Source: Owenia fusiformis
Taxonomy: Eukaryota
NCBI GenBank assembly: GCA_903813345.2
Contig: CAIIXF020000001.1
Coordinates: 25,420,001 to 25,484,000, forward strand
Direction of reading: 5' to 3'
DNA: 64,000 bases
Part shown: positions 384 through 33,003 of the stretch, piece after piece
How the letters are laid out: each line of letters begins with the position of its first letter
How positions within the stretch are numbered: the stretch's first letter is position 1
Notes under the pieces: model-generated
Database searches by the model: none
Seen by the model: only the letters and a program-made list of their open reading frames with translations
Told to the model about the DNA's origin: nothing
Position numbers and translations under genes: made by a program

Positions 384-3300
384 CTGCAAAAATAATGAGC
401 ATAGTCACATCATAATGGTGTTAAATAATTTCAATTGATCAAACTGAATGGTAGGCAGGGGAGGAATTAGACTCTTTTCCTTTTCACATTTGATTGAGAT
501 CTGGAATAATTTCCTTCGTGTGCTCTTAGATGATTTCCTTTTCATGCTGTATTCTGTAACCATTTTGGTATTTTCCCGTTGGCACTTGCGCTTGCATAAA
601 GTAGTTAAGTACTTGGGCTATGGCGTTAATGGTTGAGAAATAAGCGTCCGAACCAGCCATAGTTTTTGACCATAGTGATTTATTGTGTTTTATGCATTAT
701 GGCGACGCCTTTTAGACTGGATGTTGACAATTTGAATTAAGTTTGGACTTCGAGACTGGATTTTGTCTATCCCACATCATTTGAGACTGAATGTTCTAGT
801 ATCTTTTATGAGTACTTAAATAATATCTAGTAATATATGCAACTATTTTAGATGTTATGAGTATTGGCTACCTATTTTAATTTTTCCTTCAACATGTATT
901 TTAATGACTTCAGTATGAGTGAAATGTTCTTTGGTGTTCTGGTCCTGGATTGGGGTTTTGGCTCTCGATTGAAGAGGGAAGGGGGTGTTAGAGATTATTT
1001 ACCTTCACGTTGGATCATGGTTTTGAAATATATAGGGTCTATTTTTGTATGACAGGTCTATACTTAGAGTTTGGTTTTCTTGCTAGGTTCCTTTACTGGT
1101 TTTGTTCCTCCCCTTTTGTACTTGTACTAAGACATTTATGAACTGCGAATGGAGTACGATTTTCTAGATTTCAGTGTGTGGTTTTAGTGAAGAGATTGTT
1201 GTATGTAATGTATAAACAAGACATGCGTTAAAAGATTTCAAAGAAATCAAAAGATTTCAAATGATCTCTATAATGGATTAACGTTGAAACAATTCTCTTA
1301 CTTATTTGACAATTGTCTCCGTTGAATCCTGTTGCACAAGTACACGTATACTCGTTAAGTCCATCGACGCAAGTTCCACCGTTAAGGCAAGGCTGAATCG
1401 CACAATCATTCAGATCTATAAGAAAATTGAATACATTTCTTTGGAAAAAGGAAACGGACGTTCTTATATGTTTATACTTATATTTCAACGTAGAGTATAC
1501 CTGATTAATCTTCTACAAGCAATATGCTGTACAATCTTGATTCATGACAGTAATGACAAATATGCACATAAGTAATGACATATAAGTAATGACAAGTATG
1601 TAAATATACATATTTACAACTATTAACTAGCTTTATTTGTATTAAAACGTGTTAAAAGTTGACCTTTTCGACTCAGGTTAACTAAACTGCATGAGAGACA
1701 AATGCTAGATTCAGACTGATCAGTTACTACTTAACTAAGTATACGCACGATGTAATCGAAGGTTTAGTGATTTAAAAAGTAACTTCAATCAAAAACATGT
1801 AAGATAATAAAATGTATTGGAACATCCATATTCCCAACCGGTATTTAGTACATGTTTGCTATTAGAATATATCTATATGTCAACGTATCCAAAGACATCC
1901 TTGCGATGTAAAGTACATACCTATATCACAAACTGCCCCCATGAGACCTGGTTGACAGATACACTGGAATGCGTCCACAAGATCCACACATGTTCCATCA
2001 TTTTGACAGGGGTCACTTAGACACTCGTCGATTTCTTGAATGAAATTAATATATCAATACCACAATACCGAAAACTTACCAAATTGCATCGAGATTGGAA
2101 TTCAGGGTTTTTATATTATCGATACGGTGACCTGAATTCAACATTGTCTTTCGATTAAACCAATTATTGAAAATATTCTGTAAAAAAACTGTCATTGATT
2201 GACAACAATTTTATGCAAAAACTGTTTAAACATTTTTTTATTGCTGTTTTTGTAAACATTTTTGTTTTTATTAGTGCAATTGTTTTTCGTTCCCTTCTAC
2301 CAACATTTCCATCACAAGTTTAAATAGTGCATACTAGCATGCACCTGTATAAAGCACAAGTAGTAGGAGATATCAGTGACATGACCCAAAAAGTGACGAC
2401 CATATCATTATCTTTCCAAGAAGTAAACATTTTATGACTCAATAGGGCTGTGGGTAAAGTAGAATTAAAGTAGAGTACCTTGATCACAGTTAGTCCCAGA
2501 CCAGGTACTTGGGCAATTGCAAGTGTATTGATTTACGCCGTCAATGCAGTCTCCAGTACCACAGGGGTTTGGGGCGCAATCATCTATGTCTGCAAAAATA
2601 ATGAGCATAGTCACATCATAATGGTGTTAAATAATTTCAATTGATCAAACTGAATGGTAGGCAGGGGAGGAATTAGACTCTTTTCCTTTTCACATTTGAT
2701 TGAGATCTGGAATAATTTCCTTCGTGTGCTCTTAGATGATTTCCTTTTCATGCTGTATTCTGTAACCATTTTGGTATTTTCCCGTTGGCACTTGCGCTTG
2801 CATAAAGTAGTTAAGTACTTGGGCTATGGCGTTAATGGTTGAGAAATAAGCGTCCGAACCAGCCATAGTTTTTGACCATAGTGATTTATTGTGTTTTATG
2901 CATTATGGCGACGCCTTTTAGACTGGATGTTGACAATTTGAATTAAGTTTGGACTTCGAGACTGGATTTTGTCTATCCCACATCATTTGAGACTGAATGT
3001 TCTAGTATCTTTTATGAGTACTTAAATAATATCTAGTAATATATGCAACTATTTTAGATGTTATGAGTATTGGCTACCTATTTTAATTTTTCCTTCAACA
3101 TGTATTTTAATGACTTCAGTATGAGTGAAATGTTCTTTGGTGTTCTGGTCCTGGATTGGGGTTTTGGCTCTCGATTGAAGAGGGAAGGGGGTGTTAGAGA
3201 TTATTTACCTTCACGTTGGATCATGGTTTTGAAATATATAGGGTCTATTTTTGTATGACAGGTCTATACTTAGAGTTTGGTTTTCTTGCTAGGTTCCTTT

Positions 3301-6300
3301 ACTGGTTTTGTTCCTCCCCTTTTGTACTTGTACTAAGACATTTATGAACTGCGAATGGAGTACGATTTTCTAGATTTCAGTGTGTGGTTTTAGTGAAGAG
3401 ATTGTTGTATGTAATGTATAAACAAGACATGCGTTAAAAGATTTCAAAGAAATCAAAAGATTTCAAATGATCTCTATAATGGATTAACGTTGAAACAATT
3501 CTCTTACTTATTTGACAATTGTCTCCGTTGAATCCTGTTGCACAAGTACACGTATACTCGTTAAGTCCATCGACGCAAGTTCCACCGTTAAGGCAAGGCT
3601 GAATCGCACAATCATTCAGATCTATAAGAAAATTGAATACATTTCTTTGGAAAAAGGAAACGGACGTTCTTATATGTTTATACTTATATTTCAACGTAGA
3701 GTATACCTGATTAATCTTCTACAAGCAATATGCTGTACAATCTTGATTCATGACAGTAATGACAAATATGCACATAAGTAATGACATATAAGTAATGACA
3801 AGTATGTAAATATACATATTTACAACTATTAACTAGCTTTATTTGTATTAAAACGTGTTAAAAGTTGACCTTTTCGACTCAGGTTAACTAAACTGCATGA
3901 GAGACAAATGCTAGATTCAGACTGATCAGTTACTACTTAACTAAGTATACGCACGATGTAATCGAAGGTTTAGTGATTTAAAAAGTAACTTCAATCAAAA
4001 ACATGTAAGATAATAAAATGTATTGGAACATCCATATTCCCAACCGGTATTTAGTACATGTTTGCTATTAGAATATATCTATATGTCAACGTATCCAAAG
4101 ACATCCTTGCGATGTAAAGTACATACCTATATCACAAACTGCCCCCATGAGACCTGGTTGACAGATACACTGGAATGCGTCCACAAGATCCACACATGTT
4201 CCATCATTTTGACAGGGGTCACTTAGACACTCGTCGATTTCTTGAATGAAATTAATATATCAATACCAATCCCTTTCAAAAAGCAGTCTACTACACTGAA
4301 TACATTCGGCCTGTGTAAGATAGGAACGATGTAACATTTCAAGTTATGTTTCATACGTATGCAAATTGGTAAGTATGTGGAAGCCCAACTGTTCTGGGCT
4401 ACCCAAGTGTTCCGACTCATACCAAACTATTCTGACAGCGCAAGTGTTCCGAATTCGATTATTCCATAAGATCTGGAAATTCAAAATAGAGGGTGACAAT
4501 AATATCTTTCTGGGAAATGAATGTTTCTCTAAAATGTTGGCCCTCTTTTGAAAATTTAGACCCAATTTTCGGAAATGTTGACACATACTCTAAAATGGGC
4601 CAAGTCAGAATACTTCGGCAAGCGTCGGAATACTTGGGTAGCCCAGAACACTTGAAGCTCCACATACGTGCGAACGCAAATTGCTTCCTTTGTTTTTTAA
4701 CTATGAATTAAAGAATTTTTATTGTGAATTTCATTTTAAGTGGAATGAAAATCATATGGTTATTGACTTTGTTCAACTTATAATTCTTATAATTCCAATG
4801 CCTATTGTTCTCTTACAATGCTGATTTGAAAATTCTTATATTTTACAAAGTGTTCATTGATGATCATCACCCTGAGATTAACAGACTTTTAAGAGAAGTT
4901 GTACATTGTAATGGGCGCTTTCTATCCTGCATGGTACAATAGTAAATAGTGTGTATGATACAATACCTACTTAATTTTGTAATTGTTGCTATGTCAAAGA
5001 TTATAATTACATACCTTCACATTCTAGAGGTGTTCCATCAGATGGTGACCATGAACTGCCACTGCATGTGTATTCAGTAGTTCCGCTTAAATATGTGTAT
5101 CCTGATTTACAGGAATATGTAACAACAGATCCCTCTAGAAACTCGCCAGCACGTGTTACATTCTCAGTAAGCTCAATCGTAGGAGACCCACATCCAATTC
5201 CTGTGAATATGTTAAAATATGTTAAAATTCTCAAGATTTTCCCTGGATAAATAACCCTCGTGCGGAAAAAATGAAAAAAAATTGGAAAAGTTCTCTCAAA
5301 TATAAAACTTATGGAAGATTTTAACTTACTCTTCCTGCAGTAGGCGATGTTAACATTATTGTTATCAGACGAAGGCCATATGAACTTTGTGTCTGATTTA
5401 AGTCCAGAGTCTTGTAAGGACGTCCAGTATTGGTCCCTGGTGCAGATCTCAGCCGCATTCGCCCAACCACTGAATGAATAACACGATCTCGTTGACTTAA
5501 CAGTGCACACATACCAGTAGTTATTAGAATAACAATGTGAATTGTGTAGATTTTGGGAATTTTGAGGAAACTCCCATTGCGTATTTATTAAGAAAATAAG
5601 CGTTTATTTGTGGGTTTCTGGTTACGTTTTGAGAGATCTTGAATTGATGAATTATAGAGTTACAGTGCGATCTTGTGCGCCAGGTGGGATTTTCTAGAGC
5701 AGAGTTCACTTGCAATTGGCAGAGACCTCCTAGAGTCGAGACAGTCTTCCTTGAGAGAGAAGGGCGACCTTTTAAAAGTGGCAGAGAGACATCCTTGAGA
5801 GGAAACAGTCCTCCTAAGCCCTCCTTGAGTAGAGAAGTTACCCAGAGTGAGAGTCTGGAAGCCGGAGTATTAGAGTCCGGAGAACTATCCAGATGGGGCA
5901 AGAGTCCAGAGGAGAAAGAAAAAAGATATACCCGGAGTGAGAATCCAGAGGAGAAGTGGAGGACAAGTTACCTGAAATGAGAGTGCCTGGAGAAGTGGAG
6001 AGAAGATAGTCGGAGTATATACATACCTGTATCAAATTGTCTCAGTTACACCAGGTTATAGCGTTAGAGAGGGACATTATGTTTCAAATGTCAAGAAGTC
6101 TTAAAATCGCCAGGAAATTTCATATTTCATACAGGCTCAAAACTGTATGTATGTAAGGTTATTTCATTTTATACCATATTGGCAATACAATAACGCTAAG
6201 CTGATTTACCTGTCATCAAAATCAGGAAGGTACCAGTCAGTCTCAAGATTCTGAGAGCACTTCCAACTGCTGTCTGAACCGATAAGCTGGCTAGCCTGCA

Positions 6301-12300: not shown

Positions 12301-15300
12301 TTTTAAGAATCAGCCAAAGAAATTCAGATAAATGTCAGATTTACCTGCAAGTCGTGACCATTTAAAAAGAGAATGAACCGTTTAGTCCCTTTTTGAAAAC
12401 CCCAAAACGTAAAAACAGCAGTGAATTTCATGAATTTCAACCGTCAATGTTTTATTATCATATTAGATTTACAATATTTATACAAAGTATATGAATATTT
12501 CATCAAACCAGATAAAGGTAAAATCATTTTATCAATACATATTCATGTTAATGTCTAGTAAAATTGTGTTTCTTCTTATCGTATAGAATTTTCTATGTAG
12601 CTTCTAACTAGACTTACAAATAAACTATTCTCAGATAGAAATTTCTATACAAAATATTCCATTGTCTTTCCGTATAGAAATTTCTATGCAGATGACTCTG
12701 GAAATATCAATTTTTGTCATTTTAATTAGTTATCGGTATAGAAATTTCTATGTGAAGGCCGTCGGAAAATAATAATTATGTTACTGGTAAAACATTTCTC
12801 CTCGTATAGAAATTTCTATACTGATAAAGTCAAAAATAAAAATTGAAACGCTTCATAGAAATTTCTATATATATGGGTGCATATTTAAATTATGTTTGCT
12901 GGTATAGAAATTTCTATAAGGATAGAGTAGAAAAATAAAAATCGAATCGCTGTATAGAAATTTCTATGTGGCCCAGAAAAATTATTTTCCTAGATTGCCT
13001 GCTGTATAGAAATTTCTATATGGTCAAAAATATAAATTGAATGCCTATATAGAGATTTCTATGCGGGTGTAGTCGAAAACCTTTGGTGCTCAAAAATTAA
13101 GTTTGTCCGTATAGAAATTGCTATATGGATAAATTCAAAAAATTAAAATCGAATAATTATATAAAGAATGTTTGTAATTAGTCTTAAATTTTCGGCCTAT
13201 TGTAATACTATTTGAAATAGTATATTAGAAAATATTTGGAGGTATAGCCAATGCAGTCAAATTACATCACAGCCAGAAAAATTATTGATTTACATGGTTT
13301 TTTGTCGCTGAAAGTTATGAAAATTAAAAATAAAACATTGAGTGGCTCTGGCACATGGGGAAAAGGTTTAAGGATTTAAGCCCTTGACTGAGTGCAATGT
13401 GGAATGATCATTCTTTGAAGATGTTGGTTATTACAAAATGCATTGAGTCTCGGGCTTAAATTCTTTTCACACATTGCAAAATATTTTTACCATGTCACCT
13501 AAAAGATACGAAATCACTAAAATGACATATATTAAATGAAACTTTTTGCAAGGGTCAAGTTGGCAAACCACCAATTTTTATCTGTTGAGTGAACTTGTCA
13601 CCTTTGCAACCACCTAAGGAATGACCTTGGATGCGTTATTGGTTATTTCACGCACAATGCGTTAAGTGAAATACTGTGTTCGGATTGGCTGAAATCGGAC
13701 ACACCTTGTCTAGCTATGTGTGAATTCCAAACTAATGGAGGGTAGTGTAGGCATAGTGTAATTTGACAAACTTAGTCTAGCCAATCAAAACACAGTATTT
13801 CATATAACTGCATTACATTCTATAACCAACAACTCTCCAGATCATCCTGTCATTTCGTACAACAATGCAAACGTAATGATAAAATCAACTTGATTCTAAT
13901 TACATTTCAAAAGTTTGCCAGAGACTATACTCATTAATGTTGAGAGATAATATGGGTCACATTTGCTTCGATTTCCATTACTATACGATGAGTATGTTGA
14001 TCTTATGGGACAACTCGCGTATACTGAACATGTAGATATAAACTTTCCACAATCGCCATATATCAGCATATGATCTGAACAATTACAGGTACCGTAGTCT
14101 GGTATAAGTGTAATCATTTTTTAACAAACTACTCAATCGGCCGGGCGCGGGGACGAGCTTCCTCGTCAAATTCCTATCCCTTTGGGCAATATAGTGTATC
14201 AAATTCATTTACAAACATTTCAAGTTGTTATCGTACCGCAATAAAACAATCAAGATCATTTTTAATTTACATATTGTGGTTAAAAGCAAATATGGCCTTA
14301 CTTCCCGTACTCAATCTACACCTGATTCTAATTTAAATGTTGCGAGATGACTTGCATGGCCTACACGCTCTATTTTAGTTTTACTATTGCCATTAGAGAT
14401 GTCATGATCTTACTTTTAGATTTTAGTTTACTTTTTGAGCTTTTATATCATCCATTTTCTCGTCCTTCGAACGTCGTCCAAAATAGTTCTCTGTATATCA
14501 TTTTAAGATGTTAGAGCAAACATTTCAGGACTTATGGGACAACCCTCGTATTCTGTACATGTAGATATAAACGTTCCACAATCGCCCATCATGATGATAA
14601 ACCATGGCATCTCATTTCTTCTCAGCCCTGAGAAAGGTGAAACCGAAAGATGCTATGAGTATCAGAATGCAATCGCCATATGATCTGAACAATTCCAGGT
14701 ACCGTAGTCTGTTATAAGTGTTAGAAGGAAGTTTTCATTTTCCTCTGTTGTGTCATATTCCTCGCCCAATAATCAAACAATATATATTTGTCTTCTTGAT
14801 ATGTAATCGAGAGTACCATGTGTGTACCCTCTGGCGTGGTATTTAGATATTCCAAGATGAGCGTTTGTGTTTTCATCGAAGATATCTTTTGACTGAAACA
14901 TTAATGAACGGAAGCTATAAAATAATGTATAAAAAGTTCAGGATTTCCATTGCGAAGACAGAATGATGTACTGTTTCGTTTTAAAATACATTTTTATAAA
15001 ATCTGTTATAAAATACATGTATATCATAACCCAGCTTATTATTGTATAATGTGTTTTTATTAAAAACCTACCTCGTATGCTCATGGTTTGAGTTTACACC
15101 GGTCGACCAGTCAATCCCCCACACAGCAACCGACAATTAACATTATTAATCGCAGTGATATATCTCACCTTTCGTTTCACATTCGCATTTGACTCTAAAT
15201 GACAACTCGTAATGGGCACTGGTATTTTGAATTCTTACGCCATTTTATGCAAATCGCTTATTGTGCAACGATTAAAATGCTTTGATAGTACATTACGTTT

Positions 15301-18300
15301 GTTGTTCTTAAATTCCAAGTTGGTTATAATTACTGCATATTCAGGATATAAACTTGAACTAACTGCTGACCTGTGGACGTTATGCGCAGTATTACAAATT
15401 ACAATGATCGGTCAACTGGTCAAGTAGGAGTCTGTTTGGTAAACTCAGGCTTGCGGTTTGTTAACATACAATGTTACGCATCTCTTCAGATTGAAATTGA
15501 CACAATAGCCCACAAGATAGAAAAGCACAATTCAATATTGTATGATTTATGTATAAGGAGCTCCTCCCTTTATCTTTCCGGATTCACTCAACCTAGAAAT
15601 GTATTAAATGTATAAATGTACAAATATCTGCCTTAAGGCATGATTTAATGTAATTTGGGAGATTCAATGGTTTTATCAGTTGACTTCATGCACATGCATT
15701 GTAAGCCCCTGAGACCTTTACATTAAAACCTTGTGTATATGCCACGGTAAGATCATTCATATGTCAGGGTAAAAAAAAGATAATTTAGTCAAGAGTCATC
15801 CTTCTCGGATCAATACCTCAACAAGTCAATAAAGGATGATAAAAGTGCAGGCCTAAAATATTTTAAGGGTCACGATAAGTAGGCCATTTGGGCTAATAAT
15901 GGCCTGCTTTGTCATTAACCGGCCTCTTAATTTTCAAGCAACTAAACATTTGGAGTATAGGGGTCTAGACTTTTTCGTACGATTTTTATCAAAGTAGAGC
16001 AAACCCCATCACATTGCCAAAAGCTGGCTTCCCCCTCAATAAACTCATGTTTTCGTGCCTGTGTCCAATACTAATTTATACAAAAACATTATATTATAAA
16101 CAGCTGGAAACTTTATATCATTACTCACAATATTATTCGTCAGTCCAATGTTGATTGGCATTGGTACAGCATATAGAAAATAGTTAAATAACAATGGCAA
16201 GAATATTGTAACGATGATCTCAAAACTAAAAATAAACTACATATTATAGAGGACTTAAAATATTAGGTATACGCAATAGTTAAACCGTACATGGTGTTGC
16301 AATGCGTAAATGTATCTTTTGTTATGAAATCTACCTGAAATACACTTGTCATTCTTAACCCATTAAAATCAAACAGAATATCTCAATGATCAAATAAGAT
16401 ACACACGCGGTCCTAACTTCGACCGTTAATTTGAATTTTTGTCCTACCGGATGTTTGAAAATCAAGGATTACGAGTCTCATACTGCACCGTTTTCTTCAA
16501 ACTTGTTCCATTCAAAGCATAACACAAATCCCTTTCTGATGGTACATCATTCTCTTCAACAGAGTCCCTACTTCCAGCGGCATTTTGGTCCCCAGTTGTA
16601 AGAAGGCCTTCTAACAGCTGGGGACCAAAACGCTGCTAGAACGAGGGACTCTTTACAATAAAGTAATGCACCGACAGAAAGGCAATTTTGTTCTGCTTTT
16701 AATGGTAAAGGTTTGAAGAAAAACGGTGCAGTATGAGACTCGCAATCCTTGATTTTCAAATTAACGGTCGAAGATAGACCGCGTGATACAGTCACGACAA
16801 AAACTGAGCAACTTATATACGAGTACATGTTTTATCTTGTGGATTAAAGTGGTGAGGTCAATTGAAATAAATAGAGAAGCGCATTGGCACAATATACACT
16901 TCTACAGATTTAAATCAGACATCAAGGAAAGGGTTCCAAAATTTGAACCAGACTTATAATATAGTGAGCATTATATACCTGAGACCTGATTCATCGTTTC
17001 AAAGTGGTAAAATGCTACCGTATACGCAAGGGAGGAGACCATATTTACTCGATTGGGAATCACGAGAACATACAAAGAAAACGTTTAGAAGGAAACGCGA
17101 AACTTAAAGGTACGATTTAAGTAGTATTATGATGTCGAAATTGATCAAATAAGACACACCATAAACACATTAAGGATACCTTATGCTAATAGCCTATGCA
17201 TGTACGTTTGGGACTGATACATAATGTATATTTTTGTTTTCTAGCCACGTATGTAGCGATCCAGTGCAGCGATACGCTTGTCCATAAAGAGTGTATTTTG
17301 AAGCACGTTGTCAAGTTATTTGAAGAGTTATACAAGAAGCAAGTTCGTTGTTTTGCTAACAATATGATGAATTGATTCTGGTGGAAGATATACTTGTAAG
17401 TTAAACTTATTTAAATAGTTGCACATATCTTTAAGAATAATATTATTGTGATATTCCCATTCTAACTTGAGCTAAAAATAAGAAGGCGTATTCCTAATTC
17501 ACACGTGTGGCATCTGGGAATACATCATACAATAATAATTTAAAGATGAATGGGTACCTCAGTGGAATTGAATAATTATAAAACCGTTCACGCGTGTATC
17601 TCCTTCACATATGCCTAAAGTTGCTTCTTCAGAAAATATAGCTTACAAGGGTCGATCCAAAAGTTTTGCATCGTGTGCTCTAAAAATCTTAATACTTTAT
17701 GAGTATTTTTCATATCTTATCTCATCCACCCCATATGTAGTAGTTTCATTCTGCGTAAAATAAGCAATACATTTGATCAGTAACATAGTTTTCTGAAAAT
17801 GAAATAGCGCTTTAGTTGCTGAAATTACCAATACGGTTTAATTCATTCAAGCTCCACATACCCTGTTGTTGTGATGTATTACTATGGGAACTAGATGCAT
17901 ATGTTGAATTTTGAATTCATGGTTTATCTATACACAAAATGAAGCTACAATGCAGAGGGCGATTAAGGCAAAATATGTATATTATTCGTCAAAGATAAAG
18001 ATTTTAGAGCAAACGGTGGAGACCTTTTGGATCAATCCTCGTACACCAATCTTTGAATTTGAACCTGATGTGATATGTCATAAGTACAAGCGGATAACAT
18101 AAGCAATTTGCATTGATACATCTGAGACAGTCACGAGGTGGTGTTAATTTCACAGTTTGAAATGCTATATCTTGTAATCCCACTCTGTATGTTAATAGGA
18201 TTTTAAAGACCCAGATAAAGCCACTTGTTGTAGTCGTACACAATGATATCAATATTTGATATGGAAAACTTCTTTTGAAGGGACTTTTTGTTCGAAACAT

Positions 18301-20855
18301 TCTCAACTAATTTCGAATGATTTTGTTGTCAGTTGTCAAACACATTAAATAAGCAGTGATGATATAAATCCCATCGATTGCAAGCATACTGTATATATAT
18401 ACATGTATACTGATCTATTTTATGTTGGAAAATTATAACAATTGTTTGGGGAACGAAAGAGAAATGAACTCACAAACGCAGGAAAGTGGTTCAGAAAAAG
18501 AGACACATACATTTAAAAATACAACATTACAATCAGCGACGGCTTTGCGAATGATGTTGACCCTTGAATTGCCTATGAGCAGAAAAGATTTTGAATTTAA
18601 ATATATTTTTTGACACAAAAGGATGAAACTAAAGGTTGACACTATTAGAAAAAATGAAACCAGTAAGATAATAGTAAAATAGAATGGTAGATTAGTGAAA
18701 TTGTCATTTTGAAGTATATCATCTAATTTGTCATGTTTTGTTAATATTTTGTATGTACAGTTGTAGATAAATATAAAGCTTTCTCATGGAGAAAAGTTTC
18801 CATGATTAAAATGAATACTTCAATTCAGAAATTATAAATCTATCCTCAAGTGTGGTAATTTTCCAAATATTACACAGTATGTAGATTGTATGATTAACAA
18901 GTTCAATGGTGTCATCACATGCAATATAATGTGTCGCATACGCAAGCAGTGAGTTATGTTCAAACATGGGCTTTCAATTAGTTGAAAGCCCATGGTTCAA
19001 ACAAATACAAAAGTATTAACATCAATCATGTATTTAAAGAATTTTTAAGACCAAGCTTGATACTTTATGGATGGGCTAATGGAACCATCTTGGTATCAAA
19101 TTATGCTCGATTGAAAGAAACTTATTCGCTTTTCCTACCCCAATCGAATGATTTTTGATTTAGAGAATGCCATTCGCTTTATCCACCTTTTAATAATGTC
19201 TGAATGATGAAACTGACCGTATTTGTCTACCTTAAGGGGTACCCCTTAATGGCATTGGTGTTTGTTTAGCTATGTAATTCTACTAGAGAAGAATTGACTT
19301 TGCTTCCAGGCAGAAAAGAGATAAAAAGAGATGGAGTCATTGCAGCCTCATTCGCCACTTGAGTAGATCAACCGTTGCGTAATATAGACAGGTAAACAGG
19401 GCCGACAATCTGTGTGAATAATTAAGTGAACTATTGTCTTGCCCTATTCCATGACATTCCAAGAATTGGCAAGAGAATCGAGTAACCACTGGATTTATCC
19501 TACAAGTCTTGTACTTCATACCTGATACCTATTGTGTGCTGTAAACAGGCAGAGTCATTTAAAACTCAGATCTCTTTCTAACAAGAAGCTGCCATCAATT
19601 ATGTAAAGATATATGCAGAGGGTGCGTGGTTATATAATTCATTCGAACATGACTGTATTCACGCCTTCTATAAACTGTAAACAAAGTCAACATTTCACCC
19701 GGGGTATATTCGCGAACAAAATCCCTGGTAATACGTGCAATGTGTGACGTCATAACGGCGGGACGTAGTAATGGCGGTTTATAATGAATATTAAAGATTA
19801 CTGATAGACAGTTACTCTGGCATAGCCGAAAAGAGCACACATTCCAACGTCCATATTGTTCACCAGGAGCCGTCACCGTGAACAAAAAACATTGTGAGGA
19901 AAATTATGAAGTAAACATGTTGCATACGTTTTTGTGCATGTGTGGTTGATACCACATTTTATCATATATTTAAATGAATAAGTGAATTAAAATGTACTAC
20001 ACCCGCATAGAAATTTCTATACAGGATTTTTATATCTATACATGCATTTTTTGACCATGCTGTATAGAACTTTCTATACTGGCCATCAAGCAAAATTATT
20101 TTTCTGCGCCGCATAGAAATTTCTATACAGCATTTTTATTTATCGATCTTTTCCCTATAGAAATTTCTATACCGGCAACCAAAATATATATTTACACCTG
20201 CATAGAAATTTCTATACGAACACTTGTTTTAATTAGAAAGGCATAGAAATTTCTATACGGGGAGAAATGTTTTTCTGGTAACAGAATTAGTATTTTCCGA
20301 CGGCCTTCACATAGAAATTTCTATAGAGGTATTCAGTTTTAAATCTTCTGCTTAATCGGTAGAGAAATTTCTATACCGATAACCAAATGTTCATCAATAA
20401 CAAAATTAATATTTCCAGCCCCATCCGCATAGAAATTTCTATAGGAAAAGTCAACGGAGTCTTTTGTATAGAAATTTCTATCTGAGGATAGTGTATTTGA
20501 AAATATAGTTTGAAGTTACATAGAAAATTCTATACAATCAGAAGAAACACAATTTTACTAGACATTAACATGAATATGTATTGATAAAATGATTTTACCT
20601 TTATCTGGTTTGATGAAATATTCATATACTTTGTATAAATATTGTAAATCTAATATGATAATAAAACATTGACGGTTGAAATACATGAAATGCACTGCTG
20701 TTTTTACGTTTTTGGGTTTACAAAAAGGGACTAAACGGTTCATTCTCTTTTTAAATGGTCACGACTTCTGCGCTATCTACAGTAGAGGTGATACTCGCTA
20801 TCACTAATGCTATCAAACTCTTTGCCCCGATCACTCGACGTACATCTATCTTCAT
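273..20855 (-). CDS. Multi-exon mosaic secreted/cell-surface protein (SP-CBM14-like-PAN-CTLD-EGF-galactose-binding-like-CCP-EGFn); 3' end off-window; this allele is interrupted by a transposon at the end of exon 1
   Basis: 17 exons read by hand, all with GT-AG boundaries and compatible phases (1-1 except one phase-2 junction inside the lectin domain). No internal stops once 12349-20767 plus one TSD copy is removed. Confidence 0.85.
1302..1415 (-). CDS. EGF-like exon B
   Basis: 114 bp, tag|...|gtaag; [37 protein letters not shown]. Confidence 0.95.
1921..2034 (-). CDS. EGF-like exon C
   Basis: 114 bp, aag|...|gtatgt; [37 protein letters not shown]. Confidence 0.92.
2479..2589 (-). CDS. EGF-like exon A (duplicate)
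   Basis: Copy of 273-383 at +2206. Confidence 0.9.
3508..3621 (-). CDS. EGF-like exon B (duplicate)
   Basis: Copy of 1302-1415 at +2206. Confidence 0.92.
4127..4240 (-). CDS. EGF-like exon C (duplicate)
   Basis: Copy of 1921-2034 at +2206. Confidence 0.92.
4373..4667. mobile_element. MITE-like inverted-repeat element (intronic)
   Basis: gtatgtggaagcccaactgttctgggctacccaagtgttccgac pairs with gtcggaatacttgggtagcccagaacacttgaagctccacatac; no clear TSD. Confidence 0.65.
5015..5200 (-). CDS. Sushi/CCP domain exon
   Basis: 186 bp, phase 1-1; IGCGSPTI...[39 protein letters not shown] (4 Cys plus conserved Trp). Confidence 0.93.
5330..5469 (-). CDS. Galactose-binding-like lectin domain, exon 3 of 3
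   Basis: 140 bp, phase 2-1; GWANAAEIC...[19 protein letters not shown]. Confidence 0.85.
6210..6333 (-). CDS. Galactose-binding-like lectin domain, exon 2 of 3
   Basis: 124 bp, phase 1-2; [40 protein letters not shown](S), with the WKC...W..P.FDDS motif. Confidence 0.85.
6921..7061 (-). CDS. Galactose-binding-like lectin domain, exon 1 of 3
   Basis: 141 bp, cag|...|gtaagt; [46 protein letters not shown]. Confidence 0.85.
7825..7938 (-). CDS. EGF-like exon
   Basis: 114 bp, phase 1-1; [37 protein letters not shown]. Confidence 0.92.
8045..8248 (-). CDS. C-type lectin domain, C-terminal exon
   Basis: 204 bp; ...[19 protein letters not shown]...YKWEDMDC...TMCKQP. Confidence 0.92.
8730..9245. 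mobile_element. MITE-like element with ~70-bp imperfect TIRs
   Basis: cacactggaatagcctgacaacggtaaagtcagata... pairs with ...tatctgacttaaccgttgtcaggctattccggtgtg; no TSD seen. Confidence 0.65.
9569..9769 (-). CDS. C-type lectin domain, N-terminal exon
   Basis: 201 bp, cag|...|gtgagt; [14 protein letters not shown]...KKHC...QGDWWM(G) (WIGL-equivalent). Confidence 0.9.
9811..10010. mobile_element. Possible short degenerate hAT-type MITE
   Basis: cacaggtagtagccaag ... cttggctacgccggtg form imperfect inverted termini. Confidence 0.35.
10111..10338 (-). CDS. PAN/apple-like domain exon
   Basis: 228 bp, phase 1-1; C...[18 protein letters not shown]...TCYMY...YYIKFCP (CxxxCxxxxxC pattern). Confidence 0.88.
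10802..11778 (+). mobile_element. Degenerate Tc1/mariner element
   Basis: TA TSDs; TIRs CAGATTGGGCCAAAA.../...TTTTTGGCCCACCCTG; transposase remnant [25 protein letters not shown] at 11408-11488 (WPxxSPDLxPxD motif). Confidence 0.85.
11819..11836 (-). CDS. 18-nt linker micro-exon
   Basis: ttttcttttcag|TTCCCGTCGGACCCCAAA|gtaagt, phase 1-1, (V)PVGPQ(S). Confidence 0.7.
11962..12168 (-). CDS. Chitin-binding peritrophin-A/CBM14-like exon
   Basis: 207 bp, tag|...|gtgag; [20 protein letters not shown]...LSCASGT...NPC...SC (six Cys). Confidence 0.75.
12582..13126. repeat. Left subterminal array: 11 copies of palindrome ATAGAAATTTCTAT
   Basis: Copies near 12582, 12625, 12672, 12737, 12805, 12855, 12903, 12952, 13004, 13047, 13110. 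Confidence 0.92.
13635..13833. mobile_element. Short hairpin MITE nested in the large element
   Basis: ttggttat...gaaatactgtgttcggattggct pairs with agccaatcaaaacacagtatttc...ataaccaa. Confidence 0.6.
16404..16785. mobile_element. Fully palindromic MITE, CAC termini, 5-bp TSD ATACA (Transib-like signature)
   Basis: CACGCGGTC...GACCGCGTG; fold centre agaaggccttct (~16606); ataca at 16399-16403 and 16786-16790. Confidence 0.85.
18965..18994. mobile_element. 30-bp TIR-only remnant (P-like excision footprint)
   Basis: CATGGGCTTTCAATTAGTTGAAAGCCCATG flanked by direct repeat GTTCAAA (18958-18964, 18995-19001). Confidence 0.7.
20007..20535. repeat. Right subterminal array: 11 copies of palindrome ATAGAAATTTCTAT
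   Basis: Copies near 20007, 20062, 20112, 20156, 20201, 20242, 20310, 20361, 20428, 20467, 20519. Confidence 0.92.
20768..20855 (-). CDS. First coding exon (signal peptide) of the mosaic gene
   Basis: [29 protein letters not shown] plus G (88 bp, phase 1, matching the 12168 exon); its donor gtaaat now lies at 12344-12339, beyond the transposon. Confidence 0.85.
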
Positions 20856-21706
20856 GATTACGATCTTGCTAAAATAAAGACATTTTGTTTCGAGAACACC
20901 ACAAAATAGAGGTCGCAACCAAAGTACACGTAAAAACGTGAACACCCGTATTTCACAATGGGATTCAAAACAAAAAGTATGTATAATCTAACCGATGTAA
21001 TATCAATGTAAAAAAGATGTAGGTATTAAACCCACTGTTCAGAAACAAATGGCAGATATACTTAATTTAAAAACATCAAAAAAATAATAAGTGAGATGGT
21101 TGAAAAAACATACGTACTAATGCATTTTTCTATTTAGTGAGTTTATATTTTTATGCAAAATCGAGTCGTTTCTAAATCGACATGGGTTTACACAAAACAG
21201 TCGTTTGTTTCGTGGATTACAATCTGAAAACTTACGTGTGCCTTTTCGCTGATGGTCCAATTAGGCAACATTGCAAAATCGCTGCCACAGGAGCATACCT
21301 ATGTAATGCAATACTATCCAATTAAAGTTAACACTCTATACACAAAGCCGTGTGTCTTCAATTAAATAGTTCTAAACTGTTCAACAGATGGATTTGATAG
21401 ATATATAGACAATGAAAAAGCCATGTACCATCAATTTAAAAAAAATAAAGTCTCCTTTACACCGTACCTTTCAGTCATCCAACTTTTCCCCAAAAGGTTG
21501 TTCTTATCTTTGATCAGGCCTTGGATCTGTTACCGAACTATGGACTAAAGTTCGATATATAACTCTGAGTTCTTTAAATAGAATAATATATCAAAACGGA
21601 TTAATGCCCAAATCACCTTACAGCCAGCTACCCATTGTAATTTGTAAATATATTTGGGATTTAAGTCCATGGTAATCCGTTACCCCTTTCTGAATTGCTA
21701 TTCAAT

Positions 21707-25966: not shown

Positions 25967-28900
25967 GTTATTTGGATGATACGATACTGTTGTAAACTAA
26001 TCATATGCCTAAAAGTATATATTGGATATAAATTATTTAATACTACATATTTTTATAGTTTAAACCACAAAATGAACAGGCGCTAGATCGATGATGAATT
26101 TTAATATGCTATCTTTTAATGTTAGGGGCTTGGTGAATCAAAATAAACGGGATACGGTTATGAATTGGGTAAAAAGTAAAAACAAAGACATTACCTTTTT
26201 ACAAGAAACCCACAGTACACACGAAATTGAAAATACATATAATAATAACTGGAAAGGTGATATATATTTTTCACATGGGTCCTCTAAAAGTAGAGGAGTA
26301 ATGATATTAATAAAAGACTCTCTTGATATTAAGGTCAAACGACACATTTCTGATAAAAATGGGCGGTTTCTTATTTTAGACACTGAGATTCAAAATGAAC
26401 GCTTTCTTTTGATAAATGTTTATGGGCCAACCATCGAACAAGAAAAACTTCCATTTTGGACTGAATTCGCGCGTAAGATAAACGATGACACTCATTTGAT
26501 AATAGGCGGCGATTTCAATATCATATTCAGTGCAGATCTTGATAGATGTGGTGGAAATCATAAAGTTAATAAACAGATTATCAATTTTTTTGACACACTC
26601 ATGCTTAATTTAGACTTGGTCGATTTATGGCGTCTTAGAAACCCCAACAGAAAAAGATACACTTGGCGCCAGAAAAATCCTACAATAATGAGTAGGTTAG
26701 ATTTGTGGCTGTGTTCAGATAACCTCCAACATAATGTTGAGAAGATTGATATAGATACAGGTATTAAGTCGGATCATTCTCCTATAGTCATTTATTTTAA
26801 TAATATAAATAAAAAACCAGGCCCAAACCACTGGCGGTATAATAATAGCCTTTCAAATGACATTGATTTTAAACATGAACTTGGGCAAAATATTCCCAAA
26901 TGGTTAAATGAAGTTACAGAAATTGAAGATCAAAGAGTTGTCTGGGATTTTATTAAATACAAAATACGACACTTTACCATTGCTTATTCAAAGAAGAGGG
27001 CAAAGGCTAGAAAGAAAAACAAATGTGACCTAGAAAACAAACTTAATACGCTACAGAGCAATTTAGATAAAAATCCAAATGACATAGAAATTAAAAATGC
27101 ATACTACAAATGCCAATTAGAGCTTGAGACTCATTTTGACTATGTAACACAAGGTGAGAGAATTCGATCAAGATCTCAAGATTTTGTTGAAGGGGAGAAA
27201 GGCTCAAAATATTTTCTTCAACTAGAGAAACAAAATGCTGCAAAAAGTAACATAACACAATTAAAAAATGCAAATGGAGTAATATCTAAAGATTTTAAAA
27301 TAATTCAAAATAAAATCAAGGAATTTTATAAACAGCTTTATTCAAAATCAAAAGCAAATGTATATAATAAAAATGCAGATGTATTCTTAGAAAATAATAA
27401 TATTCCTAAGCTAACCGAGGAGGAAAAATTGTCTATGGAATGTCAAATCACAGAGCAAGAATGTTATAAAATTCTTCAAACTTTTAAAAATAATAAGTCC
27501 CCCGGAAGTGATGGTCTTACTATTGAATTTTATTCTACATTTTGGGAAAAGATAAAAACAACTTTTATGAATTCTATAGGTTTCACATTTAATAAAAAGG
27601 AAATGTCAGTTTCTCAGAGAGAAATCATTATGAAACTCATTCCGAAAAAAGGAAGAGATGTCATGTTTTTAAAAAACCAACGTCCGATTTCATTAATAAA
27701 TGTGGATGCAAAAATAATTTCCAAAGTTATGTGCAAGCGCATTGAATCTGTATTAGGCAAATTAATTAAATCAGATCAAGCAGCATTCATAAAAGAAAGA
27801 CAAATGGCTGGCTGAAATTATAAGATTAATAGATGACATGATGTTTTATACAGAAGATGAGAATATAGGGGGCGCTTTTGTAGCTGTTGACTTTCTCAAG
27901 GCATTTGATTCTCTAAGCCACGATTTTTTAATAAAAGCTTTAGAAAAACTAAATTTCGGAGAATATGTTATTTCGTGGGTTAAAATATTGTATTGTAATA
28001 TAACTGCCCAAGTTATGAATTTGGGGTTCTGTGGGGAAAAATTTAAAATAGAAAAGGGAATTAAACAAGGTGATCCTTTATCACCAGTACTCTTCATCAT
28101 TGCAGTAGAGTTTCTAGCCCAAAATATAAGAGATGATGCATTAATAAAAGGAATTCAAATTGGTAATAAAGAAATAAAACTGAGCATATATGCAGATGAT
28201 ATGACGTTGTTCGTTCGGGATAAAAACTCTATACTGCAGTCAATGAAAGTACTTGATAGCTTTGAAAAATGTAGTGGCCTTAAAACAAACTTAGACAAAA
28301 CTGAGCTCTTTACAATAGGAAGATTTAAAGATCAAATTTGGGACATTGAACACTTGAAACAAGTTCAAGAAATTAAAATTCTTGGAGTGTATTTTAATTA
28401 TGATAGAAAGCTCAAAGCAGAGAAAAATTTTAGGTCGACAATTAATCACCTTAAGCAGGTATTGAGCCTATGGCAAAGTAGAAATTTGACAATTTTAGGT
28501 AAAATACAGATCGTAAAAACTTTTGGGCTGTCAAAATTTAGCTTTATTAGTTCAGTTATTGAAACAGATGATTGTTATGTAAAGGAAATAAACGGAATTG
28601 TTTTTAAATTTATTTGGAACGGAAATGACAAGATTAAAAGAAAAGCTCTTATTTCAACAATTAAAAAAGGAGGACTCAATATGAGCGACCTCAAAACCAA
28701 AATTCAAACCTCTCAATTAAGATGGGCCCAAAAGCTTTTAAAGGATACTAAAAAGGAATCACAATGGACAATTATTCCAAATCATTATCTCCATAAATAT
28801 GGCGGGCTTTTACTTTTGCTAAACTGCAATTTTGACATAAATAAGCTAAATGCAATTAGCCCAAGATTTTATCATAATATTTTAAAGGCATATACGCTTA

Positions 28901-29879
28901 TAAGGAGACCAAAGAAAAATGCATTGGATGAAATAATTTGGAATAATGAGAACATTGTCATCAGAAATAAATCAATATTTTGGAAGGAATTTTATGATAA
29001 AGGTTTTCTAAGAATCAAAGATGTTATGCTTAATGGTATGGTTAAATCATGGAATCAGGTCAAAATGCAAACTGGACTTTCACACAATTATATGCTAAAA
29101 TGGTTTGGCCTCATTCAGGCAATACCATCAGATTGGTTAAGAGTACCGAATGGAAATATGAATGACCAGGTATCTCTAGATAATATAACAGTAATAAAAA
29201 GCGATACAGAAGTCAACTTTTTAAAATGTACATCTAGAGAATTTTATAAAATATTGCTGGAAGCTATTGCAGAATATCCAACAGCAAAACACACTTTATC
29301 AGATAAATATCATATTGAAGAAGAAGATTGGTCATTTTACTATGAACACTTTCATAAAACCCTGACATATTCAAAACATAAGGCATTTCAATATAAGCTC
29401 TTAAACAATATTTTGTATACAAATAGTGAACTTTTTCAATACAAAATAACTCCTTCACCAATGTGTGAGTTTTCCCATGTGAACATAGAAACTTGTGACC
29501 ACATCTTCTTTAATTGTGATTATACCAAACAGTTTTGGAAGTCATTAATAGATAATACATTAAAAGATCTCGAAAACTTTTCTCTGCTTACAGTATTATT
29601 TGGTAGCCCAAAATGGAGTGATTTTGAAAATATGGTAATTATTATAGGAAAGTACTACTTATATAATAAGAAAATGCAACAAGAGCCTCCAAATTATTAC
29701 AACTTTAAGGCATATTTAGATTATTGTTTAAAAATGAAAATAGATTTTAACAGTATGATGGTATGAGTGGAGAATGTGAATGAATGGGTAATGGAGTGAC
29801 TTTTATAATTTTTCACTTATATGTATACATTTTAAATTTGATGAATAAAAAAAAACAAAAAAGAAAAAAAACAAAAAAA
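25967..29879 (+). mobile_element. L1/Tx1-clade LINE, 5'-truncated (ORF2 only)
   Basis: TSD AACATGTGCGT (25956-25966, 29880-29890); AATAAA then A-rich tail at ~29844-29880; APE plus RT ORF2. Confidence 0.95.
26091..29766 (+). pseudogene. LINE ORF2 (APE endonuclease, reverse transcriptase, C-terminal zinc knuckle) with one frameshift
   Basis: SFNVRGL, FLQETH, GGDFN, SDH; KSPGSDG, RPISLIN, DFLKAFD, GIKQGDPLSP, YADD. A 4-bp duplication at 27807-27814 splits it into ORFs 26091-27815 and 27838-29766. Confidence 0.93.
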
Positions 29880-29897: not shown

Positions 29898-30870
29898 CTC
29901 ATTTCACCTTGCACTCACACTTGACCAATGCTTGGCATGCCTTAGCTGCTTGAGGAAAGCCTGTACATAGTGGCATCAGAAGGGACATGTCATACTGCCA
30001 GCCACATGTTGTGAACTCGATAACCATTTTGGTTATGGCACCAAACTAAACTGCCTTGGTTCGCAAGTTAAGATTTTCTGTGCAAGGGCTCCTTTTGTTG
30101 GTAGTACTTTAATTTGTCAATGACTGTATGACCGTTACAGAACATTAGCCTTCGTGCTGCATTGATATATAGCTGCTGGTTGCTGGTTCGATCAAATACT
30201 AAACCAGTAAAATGTTCCAGGGACTGAATGACTTGAACTGACAAAGGCAGGTTTGTTGTAACCATTTGTGCCACTTGTAGAAAAGCTGGAGTAACTTCCT
30301 TGAACACATTCCATAGATTGAAGGGCAGATTCTTAGCTATGGCCAAAGAATCGTGCAGTTCATATAATATAATTTAATACCTGTAATTTTTGAGAGGTCC
30401 GAAGGCAATCCAGATTGACACCTATTGCACCCTAATGCTGCAGCCATGGCAAGAAAAAGGACATCAGTATCTCCACTTCTGATTATGAAGTATTTTCTAC
30501 CCTCTGAGGTCATCTGTTTTATATGAACAAAGAGCCTAGTGTCAGCTTTTTCATGAGTACAAGGATCAATCATTGCTGTATCTGGCAATTGAGGAAAGCA
30601 CTGAAGATATTCCCAAATAGTAGTTATCATTTGCTTTTCATTAACAACAACCTCAGACATAAAGTTGGCCAGGAATGCAAACAGCCTAGTCTGGTTCCAT
30701 TGGTTGTTAGAAAGGCTGGCCAATTCTTTGGCATTTGTGCATCTCTGCATAAATCATCCTTCTTGCACCAGTGCCACAATAAATCCTTGTTAGGGACTTC
30801 TCACTGTTTTGTAGGTAAATGTAAACATTCCAGACAACATCTAATCTTAGGAATCACTGCAGATGATTCT
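29898..30870 (-). mobile_element. Degenerate Academ-like transposon protein fragment (XPG/PIN-like region plus Cys-rich end)
   Basis: DPCTHEKADTRLFVH...IIRSGDTDVLFLA; INAARRLMF; PQAAKACQALVKCECK; multiple frameshifts. Confidence 0.7.
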
Positions 30871-31042
30871 TTGTTTTTTTCTCCCAAGACCACACCAACT
30901 ATGCATGCAAGTGAATCCTGAAGTCAAGGATCTGAGAAATGATTATGACCTTTTTGCCATTACTCTAGATTGCATGCCAATCAAGACACAATGACATGTT
31001 TTTCAAATATGAAAACCATGAGTTCCCGCCATCCCTACCTAA

Positions 31043-33003
31043 TGCCTAGGTCACATAGCCGCCGGGCGCCGGCCGATGAGTAGTCATCGGCCGATTTCTA
31101 AATCGACCGGGCGCCGGTGACTTTTCACCGATGTCTTGATCTAATCGTGAGTATGGTCACATTAGTACAGGCATCGTACGGCGCCCGCAATCAATTGAAT
31201 CTGAAAGACATCGCACGGGTATCGCAAGGCTATCTGCCGATGGCCGTACGGCACCCGCAAGGACATCGGTCGATCTACAGGCCTCTAGATTTATACTAAA
31301 TTCTTGTATGACCCAGTATGACTGTTCCACATGGCGTGAATGCAAGATTCGAAAACGAAATACTTCGATAGACAGGACTTCCAGGATAATAATCTTTTCA
31401 TGCAATAAAAATCAGAAAAAGAAGATCCTCTGTTCGAGTAAATAGGTTCAATATTTAGAAAAAAATGCTGACATGGGGTCCCTATTCATAATTTTTCAAA
31501 TTGTTTGATTGATATTTTTACTATCATGGGTACTCCAATTGAAAGAAAACACATTGTTTTAATAAAAACACTGTATTTATGCCCAGAAAGTACTCATGGT
31601 GAAAGTTATGACCGTCTAAAATCACTTGCCATACTGCACGTGGTCTTTTCATCAAAGTGCACCCTGACCTTAATTCATTTTTAGATCTTTCATATAAACA
31701 AATACTATGTCTACCTGTCCATCCGATACTATTAGCAAAATTCCATATTTCTGCATCTTTCTTTTGTCTGTTCTCGTAAAGAGAATTTGTTTGGTCATAA
31801 AAATATGGCCTATCTTCAAAGAAATTGGCAATTTTTTCTTCTATTTCAAATTGAGTACCCTCTTCCCTAGACACATCTAGAGTCCATTTCACTGCTTCAT
31901 TTCGTCATTTGTATATCTTGGATTGCTTCTAGTTTGGCTTATAAAGTGTGTGGCCTCTTATATTTGGATGTTTCTCTGCCATGTTATTTTCAATAAGATT
32001 AACATGGCTGAAATTCTTCAAATTACAAGACGGCACAGGCTTATTGCACAAAAAACTAAAAGATCTGAAATATACAAATGTCATTCATGTACATTATGAA
32101 TATACTTTTCCATATATTATTGCACAATGGTCTCCCAATTTCTTATTTTTGCCGTTCTACTGACGAAATGAAGCAGTGAAATGGACTCTAAATCTCCATC
32201 ATCCGCCAGCTCGATCACTAGCATTGTAATTGTCTTTTCCACCTGTCTTTCCAAGGCCTTCCTCATATATGGCCCATTGGCCTTATCCCCTCTTTCCTTA
32301 GCCTTTGGCATATTAACTAATTATTGAGACAGTGAACTTCGTATTAAAATTGTGACCCTTCAAAATACTGTACTCACAAAATCAGTCAGAAGGTTTTTAA
32401 AATAAATGATTTGTAATGGTATATGCATGAGTGAATATACGTATAAAAATGTATCACTCTATTCAATGTGTATGACAGACATGTACACGATTAATGTCAA
32501 TATAAGAACGAATTGATCAACCCACCCACCCAGCCATTCAAATGTGTGCCATTGTTTTACAGTAAGCCTAATCGTTCCATTTATGTTTTATAAAAAATCT
32601 CTGACAGTGTGTAGTAATTATAATTCCTTACTTCATTATTTCTAGAACCTTTATATCACTTTATAAGTAATCATTATTAAGATTTATCAAACAAATCAGC
32701 ACGCAAAATCCCAAGATGACCGTGCGATGCCACCGGGCGCCGTAAGATAATCGTACGATGACCGGACGGGACACGGCCGGTTAGGTACCGATGAGTTTGG
32801 TTGAGAAAAAATCGCCAAGACATCGGCAACTTTTATCTCCGCGATAAAACTCTGCCGGCGCCCGTACGATGTCTAAAAATCGGCCGATGAGTGGCGATCA
32901 TCGCCCGGCGCCCGTACGATGCCCGGGCTCGCCGGCCGATTTTGAACAAAATACTCATCGGCCGGGCGCCGTAGTGAAAATCGGAGCTTATGTGACCAAG
33001 GCA
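31043..33003 (-). mobile_element. Non-autonomous PIF/Harbinger element with MADF/Myb-SANT ORF remnant
   Basis: TSD TAA (31040-31042, 33004-33006); TIR TGCCT(A/T)GGTCACATA; GC-rich subterminal repeats; EEKIANFFEDRPYFYDQTNSLYENRQKKDAEIWNFANSIG. Confidence 0.9.
31878..32190. mobile_element. Academ-like MITE nested in the Harbinger MADF ORF
   Basis: Perfect 30-bp TIR TAGAGTCCATTTCACTGCTTCATTTCGTCA; flanks CATC/AATC; removing it restores the reading frame. Confidence 0.8.

Follow-up and report, generated by a model that had tools for sequence, protein, structure and literature searches.

A stretch of 64,000 nucleotides of the Owenia fusiformis contig CAIIXF020000001.1 (hereafter the window, to which all positions refer) carries, at 12349-20767, an 8,419-bp unit with long inverted arms, and this unit, which is probably one copy of a non-autonomous DNA transposon, is the subject of the present analysis. 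Measured from the tip to the innermost copy of a 14-bp palindromic motif, the left arm comprises 776 bp and the right arm 761 bp, and the arms enclose a non-coding middle domain of 6,882 bp (13125-20006). Each arm consists of an outer motif-free domain of 230 bp (12349-12578 on the + strand; 20538-20767 on the - strand) and an inner domain bearing the motif (12583-13124 on the + strand; 20007-20533 on the - strand). Read inward, both arms start with AAGTCGTGACC, and the unit ends are AAG...CTT. The left boundary is ...ACCTGC|AAGTCGTGACC and the right boundary is GGTCACGACTT|CTGCGCTA, the tetranucleotide CTGC lying on the + strand directly outside both tips (12345-12348 and 20768-20771) as a 4-bp direct repeat; among flank matches of 5, 7, 8, or 9 bp at the unit ends, none fit. 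The terminal inverted repeats (TIRs) and the directly adjoining target-site duplication, the latter read at this one copy, are features of the TIR class of transposons.

The repeat finder identified a 366-nt inverted repeat, 93% complementary, between 12349-12714 and 20402-20767, together with more colinear arm pieces inward, to approximately 13073 on the left and 19996 on the right. In a global alignment, the left arm and the reverse-complemented right arm were colinear over approximately 790 columns; each has a single repeat unit without a counterpart in the other, which in the left arm is placed at the inner end. The motif-free outer domains were nearly identical (225 of 230 columns identical, 5 different, none gapped; 97.8%).

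The palindrome ATAGAAATTTCTAT occurs in the window 22 times at no more than one mismatch (16 exact copies and 6 with one mismatch), with 11 copies in each inner domain (8 exact and 3 one-mismatch on either side) and none elsewhere, and a shuffled-sequence control gave no match in any of 100 shuffles. Across the 22 copies, 302 of 308 consensus letters are kept, and the information content amounts to 1.6-2.0 bits over the 14 motif positions, compared with mostly less than 1 bit outside them, where only weak preferences for GT before and R after the palindrome can be seen. The motifs follow one another at start-to-start distances of 39-68 bp without helical phasing, and the first three are placed at matching tip distances in the two arms (234, 286, and 325).

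Within the inner domains, the columns of the arm alignment behave in two ways. Motif columns are almost invariant between the arms (138 identical, 2 different, none gapped; 98.6%), whereas spacer columns comprise 255 identical, 81 different, and 75 gapped positions, that is, 75.9% identity of the ungapped columns (Fisher test, p = 1.2e-11 for motif versus spacer columns). Spacers within one arm are mutually unrelated, being on average 48-50% alike (maximum 75%) compared with 45 +/- 6% for shuffled spacers. The 14-mer has been retained selectively while the spacers drifted to background similarity, and we take this as a sign that both the 14-mer and the outer 230 bp are under selection, since motifs kept among drifted spacers are the pattern that selection on a binding site predicts. 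Concerted evolution as the source of motif identity was rejected because it would have homogenized the spacers too. A sequence-only reading of the window, which preceded this work, had described AAG...CTT ends, a 4-bp duplication, 11 + 11 palindromic 14-mers, nearly perfect outer arms with diverged inner spacers, and motif conservation set against spacer drift; the repeat finder, the motif scan, the flanks, and the arm alignment bear out this anatomy in full detail and support the contrast between motif and spacer.

The protein for which such sites would be kept might also be a host factor rather than a transposase, and the 22 sites might be stress-responsive. Every intact palindrome in 12583-13124 and 20007-20533 contains AGAAATTTCT (that is, GAAnnTTC), which we take to be the two-unit core of the heat-shock element, and conservation of the motif without its spacers fits host-factor binding. 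However, the adjoining pentamers break the nGAAn pattern, leaving no three-unit heat-shock site, and conservation (2.0 bits) also takes in the outer ATA/TAT letters, dispensable for a heat-shock element. We therefore regard retention of the palindromes by a host factor as very improbable.

The middle domain contains no long open reading frame, the longest stop-to-stop frame in 13125-20006 being 116 aa, and none of its 57 frames of at least 40 aa reaches a Pfam curated cut-off (best E-value 0.022), in agreement with the earlier statement that no transposase is recognizable there. Transposases of Sola1-3, Academ, Kolobok, Zator, and CMC were missing from Pfam (PMC5751038); the absence of Pfam matches alone is weak evidence, and the absence of any long frame stands. 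The depth profile and contigs divide the domain into family-specific stretches (e.g., 13001-13372, 14970-16237, 16872-18773, and 19091-19407) and, between them, bins of nested very-high-copy repeats (13385-14969, 16238-16871, 18774-19090, and 19408-20041), whose summed depth reaches 1e4 to 4e5 in one public run (X1) and which belong to families far more abundant than the 8,419-bp element. The clearest of these repeats is a miniature inverted-repeat transposable element (MITE) of 382 bp at 16404-16785, with inverted ends of approximately 32 nt starting CACGCGGTC and its own 5-bp duplication, ATACA, at 16399-16403 and 16786-16790; its summed contig depth in X1 is 3.3-4.3e5, compared with 55 for the unique flank, and loose ends occur at 16404.

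Copy number was estimated from contigs of three independent public runs of the same organism, produced in three different studies (X1, X4, and X9). Seven family-specific interior contigs of run X1 have depths of 811-981, compared with 55.2 for the left-flank contig; in run X4 the corresponding values are 59.7-115.9 and 15.5, and in run X9 interior contigs lie at 73.7-163.5, with single contigs at 3.99 and 262.9, and flank bins at 2.8-12.6. Interior contigs are thus approximately 4-18 times deeper than flank contigs across runs, and over lengths of 316-618 nt they depart from the window at 2-6 positions, or approximately 1%. We claim from this a young, multi-copy unit whose excess over its flank is several-fold to perhaps 15-fold. 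Further contigs bear the same 14-mer with different spacers, which points to further arrays elsewhere in the genome. Two family contigs matching 16937-17450 (record 6 of X1 and record 12 of X4) are preceded by 135 and 241 letters, respectively, that are unlike the window at 16802-16936; the copies are therefore not all colinear, and the present one departs there from the majority form.

These depths bear on two other explanations of the unit. The first is that it is a composite, in which an independent element of approximately 770 bp, present twice in inverted orientation, trapped 6.9 kb of host DNA and the whole was moved or duplicated as a block. Summed X1 depth per bin is higher over the arms (1,750-5,750) than over the interior (approximately 800-2,450), and elements sharing the arms and lacking the present interior may exist; arm depth is, however, inflated by double placement and by diverged contigs. 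The even depth of 811-981 in the seven X1 contigs over the whole interior indicates joint amplification of interior and arms, and the terminal 15-mer, searched at up to three mismatches, was found only at the two outer tips, so that the arms have no inner ends and are not independent elements. A composite origin is accordingly quite unlikely. The second explanation, a one-off inverted duplication or an assembly artefact that is not mobile, would suit the occurrence of a single copy within the window, but in the runs of all three studies arms and interior are covered many times more deeply than the flank, and a 4-bp direct repeat bounds the inverted repeat cleanly. It is hardly credible, and the view of the sequence-only reading that the unit is not such a duplication is supported, since both arms and interior are multi-copy in all three runs.

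A possible empty site was also noted. In record 1 of X1 and record 9 of X4, matching to the left flank ends at 12344, just before CTGC, and is followed by 296 and 227 non-element letters, respectively; these contigs, the only such ones among those listed, differ from the window by 12 of 356 (X1) and 9 of 545 letters (X4). They may represent an allele without the insertion, provided that the aligner assigned CTGC to the right-hand piece, and we treat them as a lead. The reconstructed empty site would read ...TTTACCTGCGCTATC... with a single CTGC. On the - strand, the empty target would be ...GCGCAG|GTAAATCTG (12340-12348 joined to 20768-20776), which resembles a splice-donor junction, and an open frame at 20751-20987 on the same strand reaches the reconstructed target junction.

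Taken together, 12349-20767 is probably one copy of a young, multi-copy, non-autonomous cut-and-paste transposon of the TIR class with a foldback-like build, that is, a terminal domain, a subterminal repeat array, and a non-coding middle, and we favor the following account of its movement. A transposase encoded elsewhere in the genome would bind the 14-bp palindromes, probably as a dimer with one half-site, ATAGAAA, per subunit. The 11 + 11 sites may load many copies of the protein cooperatively on both arms and thereby help the ends to pair, and cleavage would take place within the conserved outer 230 bp and the AAG/CTT tips. The CTGC duplication would then follow from integration into a target cut with a 4-nt stagger.

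Arrays of short binding motifs near transposon ends have precedents. En/Spm (CACTA) elements carry several hundred bp per end with many copies of one short TnpA-bound motif in both orientations, which are thought to unite the ends; the present unit resembles them in its subterminal array of one short motif at both ends and differs from them in its tips (AAGTC instead of CACTA) and in the length of its duplication (4 bp instead of 3 bp). Duplications of 3-4 bp are made by Academ and CMC-Chapaev elements, and Sola2 elements have long TIRs.

The remaining families were compared through published descriptions, and every mismatch of target sequence rests on the single CTGC duplication. Repbase classes non-autonomous elements by duplication length and tip positions 1-11 (PMC4455052). 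Sola2 shares the 4-bp target-site duplication (PMC3627910), whereas Sola2-Fanzor elements are described with TIRs of 12-21 bp and AT-rich duplications (AWWT, ATAT) (PMC3627910), in contrast to the long arms and CTGC found here. Three other candidates each depart from this one copy in a defining feature. Ginger1 and Ginger2 agree in the 4-bp duplication, but their TGTNR termini and their CCGG/CCGT (Ginger1) or RTATAY (Ginger2) targets (PMC2836005) do not correspond to AAGTC and CTGC; Kolobok agrees in its RR...YY termini (AA...TT here), but its duplication is TTAA-specific (PMC9587614) and has one of four letters in common with CTGC; and Sola1 has as its hallmark an AWWT/AWDT target (PMC3845634), unlike CTGC in the one copy available. 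The TGT ends of Ginger and the TTAA targets of Kolobok, both named in the sequence-only reading, agree with these sources.

The closest resemblance in build is to foldback elements. Galileo, a foldback-like transposon of Drosophila, has long TIRs, and in some copies tandem repeats inside the TIRs add binding sites for its THAP-domain transposase (PMC4079207, PMC4168063); many defective copies are made up of TIRs around a non-coding middle (PMC4168063, PMC4079207). With its long repeat-bearing TIRs and non-coding middle, Galileo offers the closest model for how the arms described here might function. The FB elements of Drosophila and Tetris, foldback elements for which membership of the Mutator superfamily has been suggested (PMC4079207), similarly combine terminal and repeat-bearing domains with a non-coding middle that varies, and are non-autonomous elements whose autonomous partner was not found (PMC4079207). 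A classical foldback element, either FB/Tetris (Mutator-related) or Galileo (P superfamily), moved by a transposase of that kind, would account for the three-part build common to such elements, with tandem subrepeats in the arms (PMC4079207, PMC4168063). The duplications are nevertheless of 8-10 bp in Tetris (PMC4079207) and 7-8 bp in Galileo (PMC4168063), compared with 4 bp only in the present unit; Tetris repeats are of approximately 220 bp (PMC4079207), whereas the units found here measure 39-68 bp and share the 14-mer only, and the motif, unlike the repeats of Galileo, is a perfect 14-bp palindrome. Foldback builds may, moreover, arise independently in separate lineages (PMC4079207). We consider assignment to either classical group distinctly improbable.

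Several observations weigh against the transposon interpretation favored above. A single duplication is readable, and a 4-bp match arises by chance approximately once in 256 tries. Contig depth does not equate to copy number, and one of the runs, X4, is possibly RNA. No transposase was seen, nor was any copy of the element encoding one. The joint of 12344 to 20768 expected of an empty site was not among the 15 listed of 184 joints. The 4-bp non-AT duplication combined with AAG tips matches none of the superfamilies whose described features were compared. Transcription of the element was not seen in raw RNA reads of run X21 (approximately 6% of the run): mean depth was 0-2.4 on purely family-specific interior bins and 0.1-3.2 on the arms, rising to 8.95 where a MITE-like inverted repeat lies in the interior (bin 17506-17822), and the reads fell almost entirely on nested high-copy repeats, 92% of them continuing into unlike sequence.

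Animal genomes commonly harbor non-autonomous DNA transposons whose long inverted arms bear repeats, and many such elements are unclassified, so that the find itself is ordinary. Its value lies elsewhere. The very sharp difference in conservation between motif and spacers pinpoints a candidate protein-binding site, and in a young family (approximately 1% divergence), of which this copy is perhaps absent from other individuals, the mobilizing enzyme may still be active and findable in the genome. The significance would grow if the partner transposase proved to belong to a new or poorly known lineage; once found, it would either broaden one of the poorly known superfamilies, for example Sola2, Academ, or Chapaev, or represent an additional lineage. 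It is unlikely that the transposase belongs to an undescribed lineage, or to a known superfamily with 4-bp duplications whose non-AT target has gone unreported and whose DNA-binding domain reads the 14-bp palindrome as a dimer; in that event the 22 near-perfect sites would form an unusually clear, ready-made binding-site map of a new cut-and-paste system still active in this animal.

Searches were extended beyond the window. The motif pair was found at 14 loci in metagenome contigs, none of them related to the element by blastn (apart from one 53-nt chance match), and at one locus in viral contigs; the terminal 23-mer gave no match in prokaryote genomes, and the scans of these three collections yielded no relative. 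Five of the metagenome contigs (L001, L003, L006, L007, and L008) contain the same 14-bp palindrome three times at spacings of 67 and 102 bp, in L001 within a non-coding stretch of approximately 1.1 kb of a prokaryote-like contig, and two others (L011 and L012) contain four palindromes approximately 57-68 bp apart. Such arrays probably serve an unrelated system as operators or iterons. In a curated bivalve transposable-element library (PMC10294476), 12 of 33 files together with files 24 and 25, whose sequences are largely unsearchable, gave no motif match, and the supplements may hold one; an 11-mer match inside a long interspersed nuclear element (LINE) consensus of this library was taken as chance. 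The 14-mer was not found in the literature searched, and Rfam gave no match over 1-37000 of the window.

The surroundings of the element contain several further features. An exon-like frame at 5007-5603 on the - strand encodes a Sushi (complement control protein) domain (E = 1.7e-6). A LINE at 26076-29766 encodes an endonuclease, a reverse transcriptase, and a zf-RVT domain in two overlapping frames with a break near 27800; the best relatives of its reverse transcriptase are only 39% identical, and the named ones come from a coral. At 30337-31904 on the - strand, two open frames of 126-138 aa belong to no Pfam family and carry neither the 14-mer nor the element tips; judged by eye, one presumably resembles transposon-derived proteins of aquatic invertebrates and the other appears MADF-like. 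At the end of the window (36823-64000), a tandem array of 27 kb is built on nested periods of 51, 141, 282, and 423 bp and has a GC content of 48% and constant skew. Its + strand shows an open frame exceeding 1,780 codons, rich in Val, Ala, Ser, and Thr, and on one strand or the other the array may represent a giant repetitive (mucin-like) exon.

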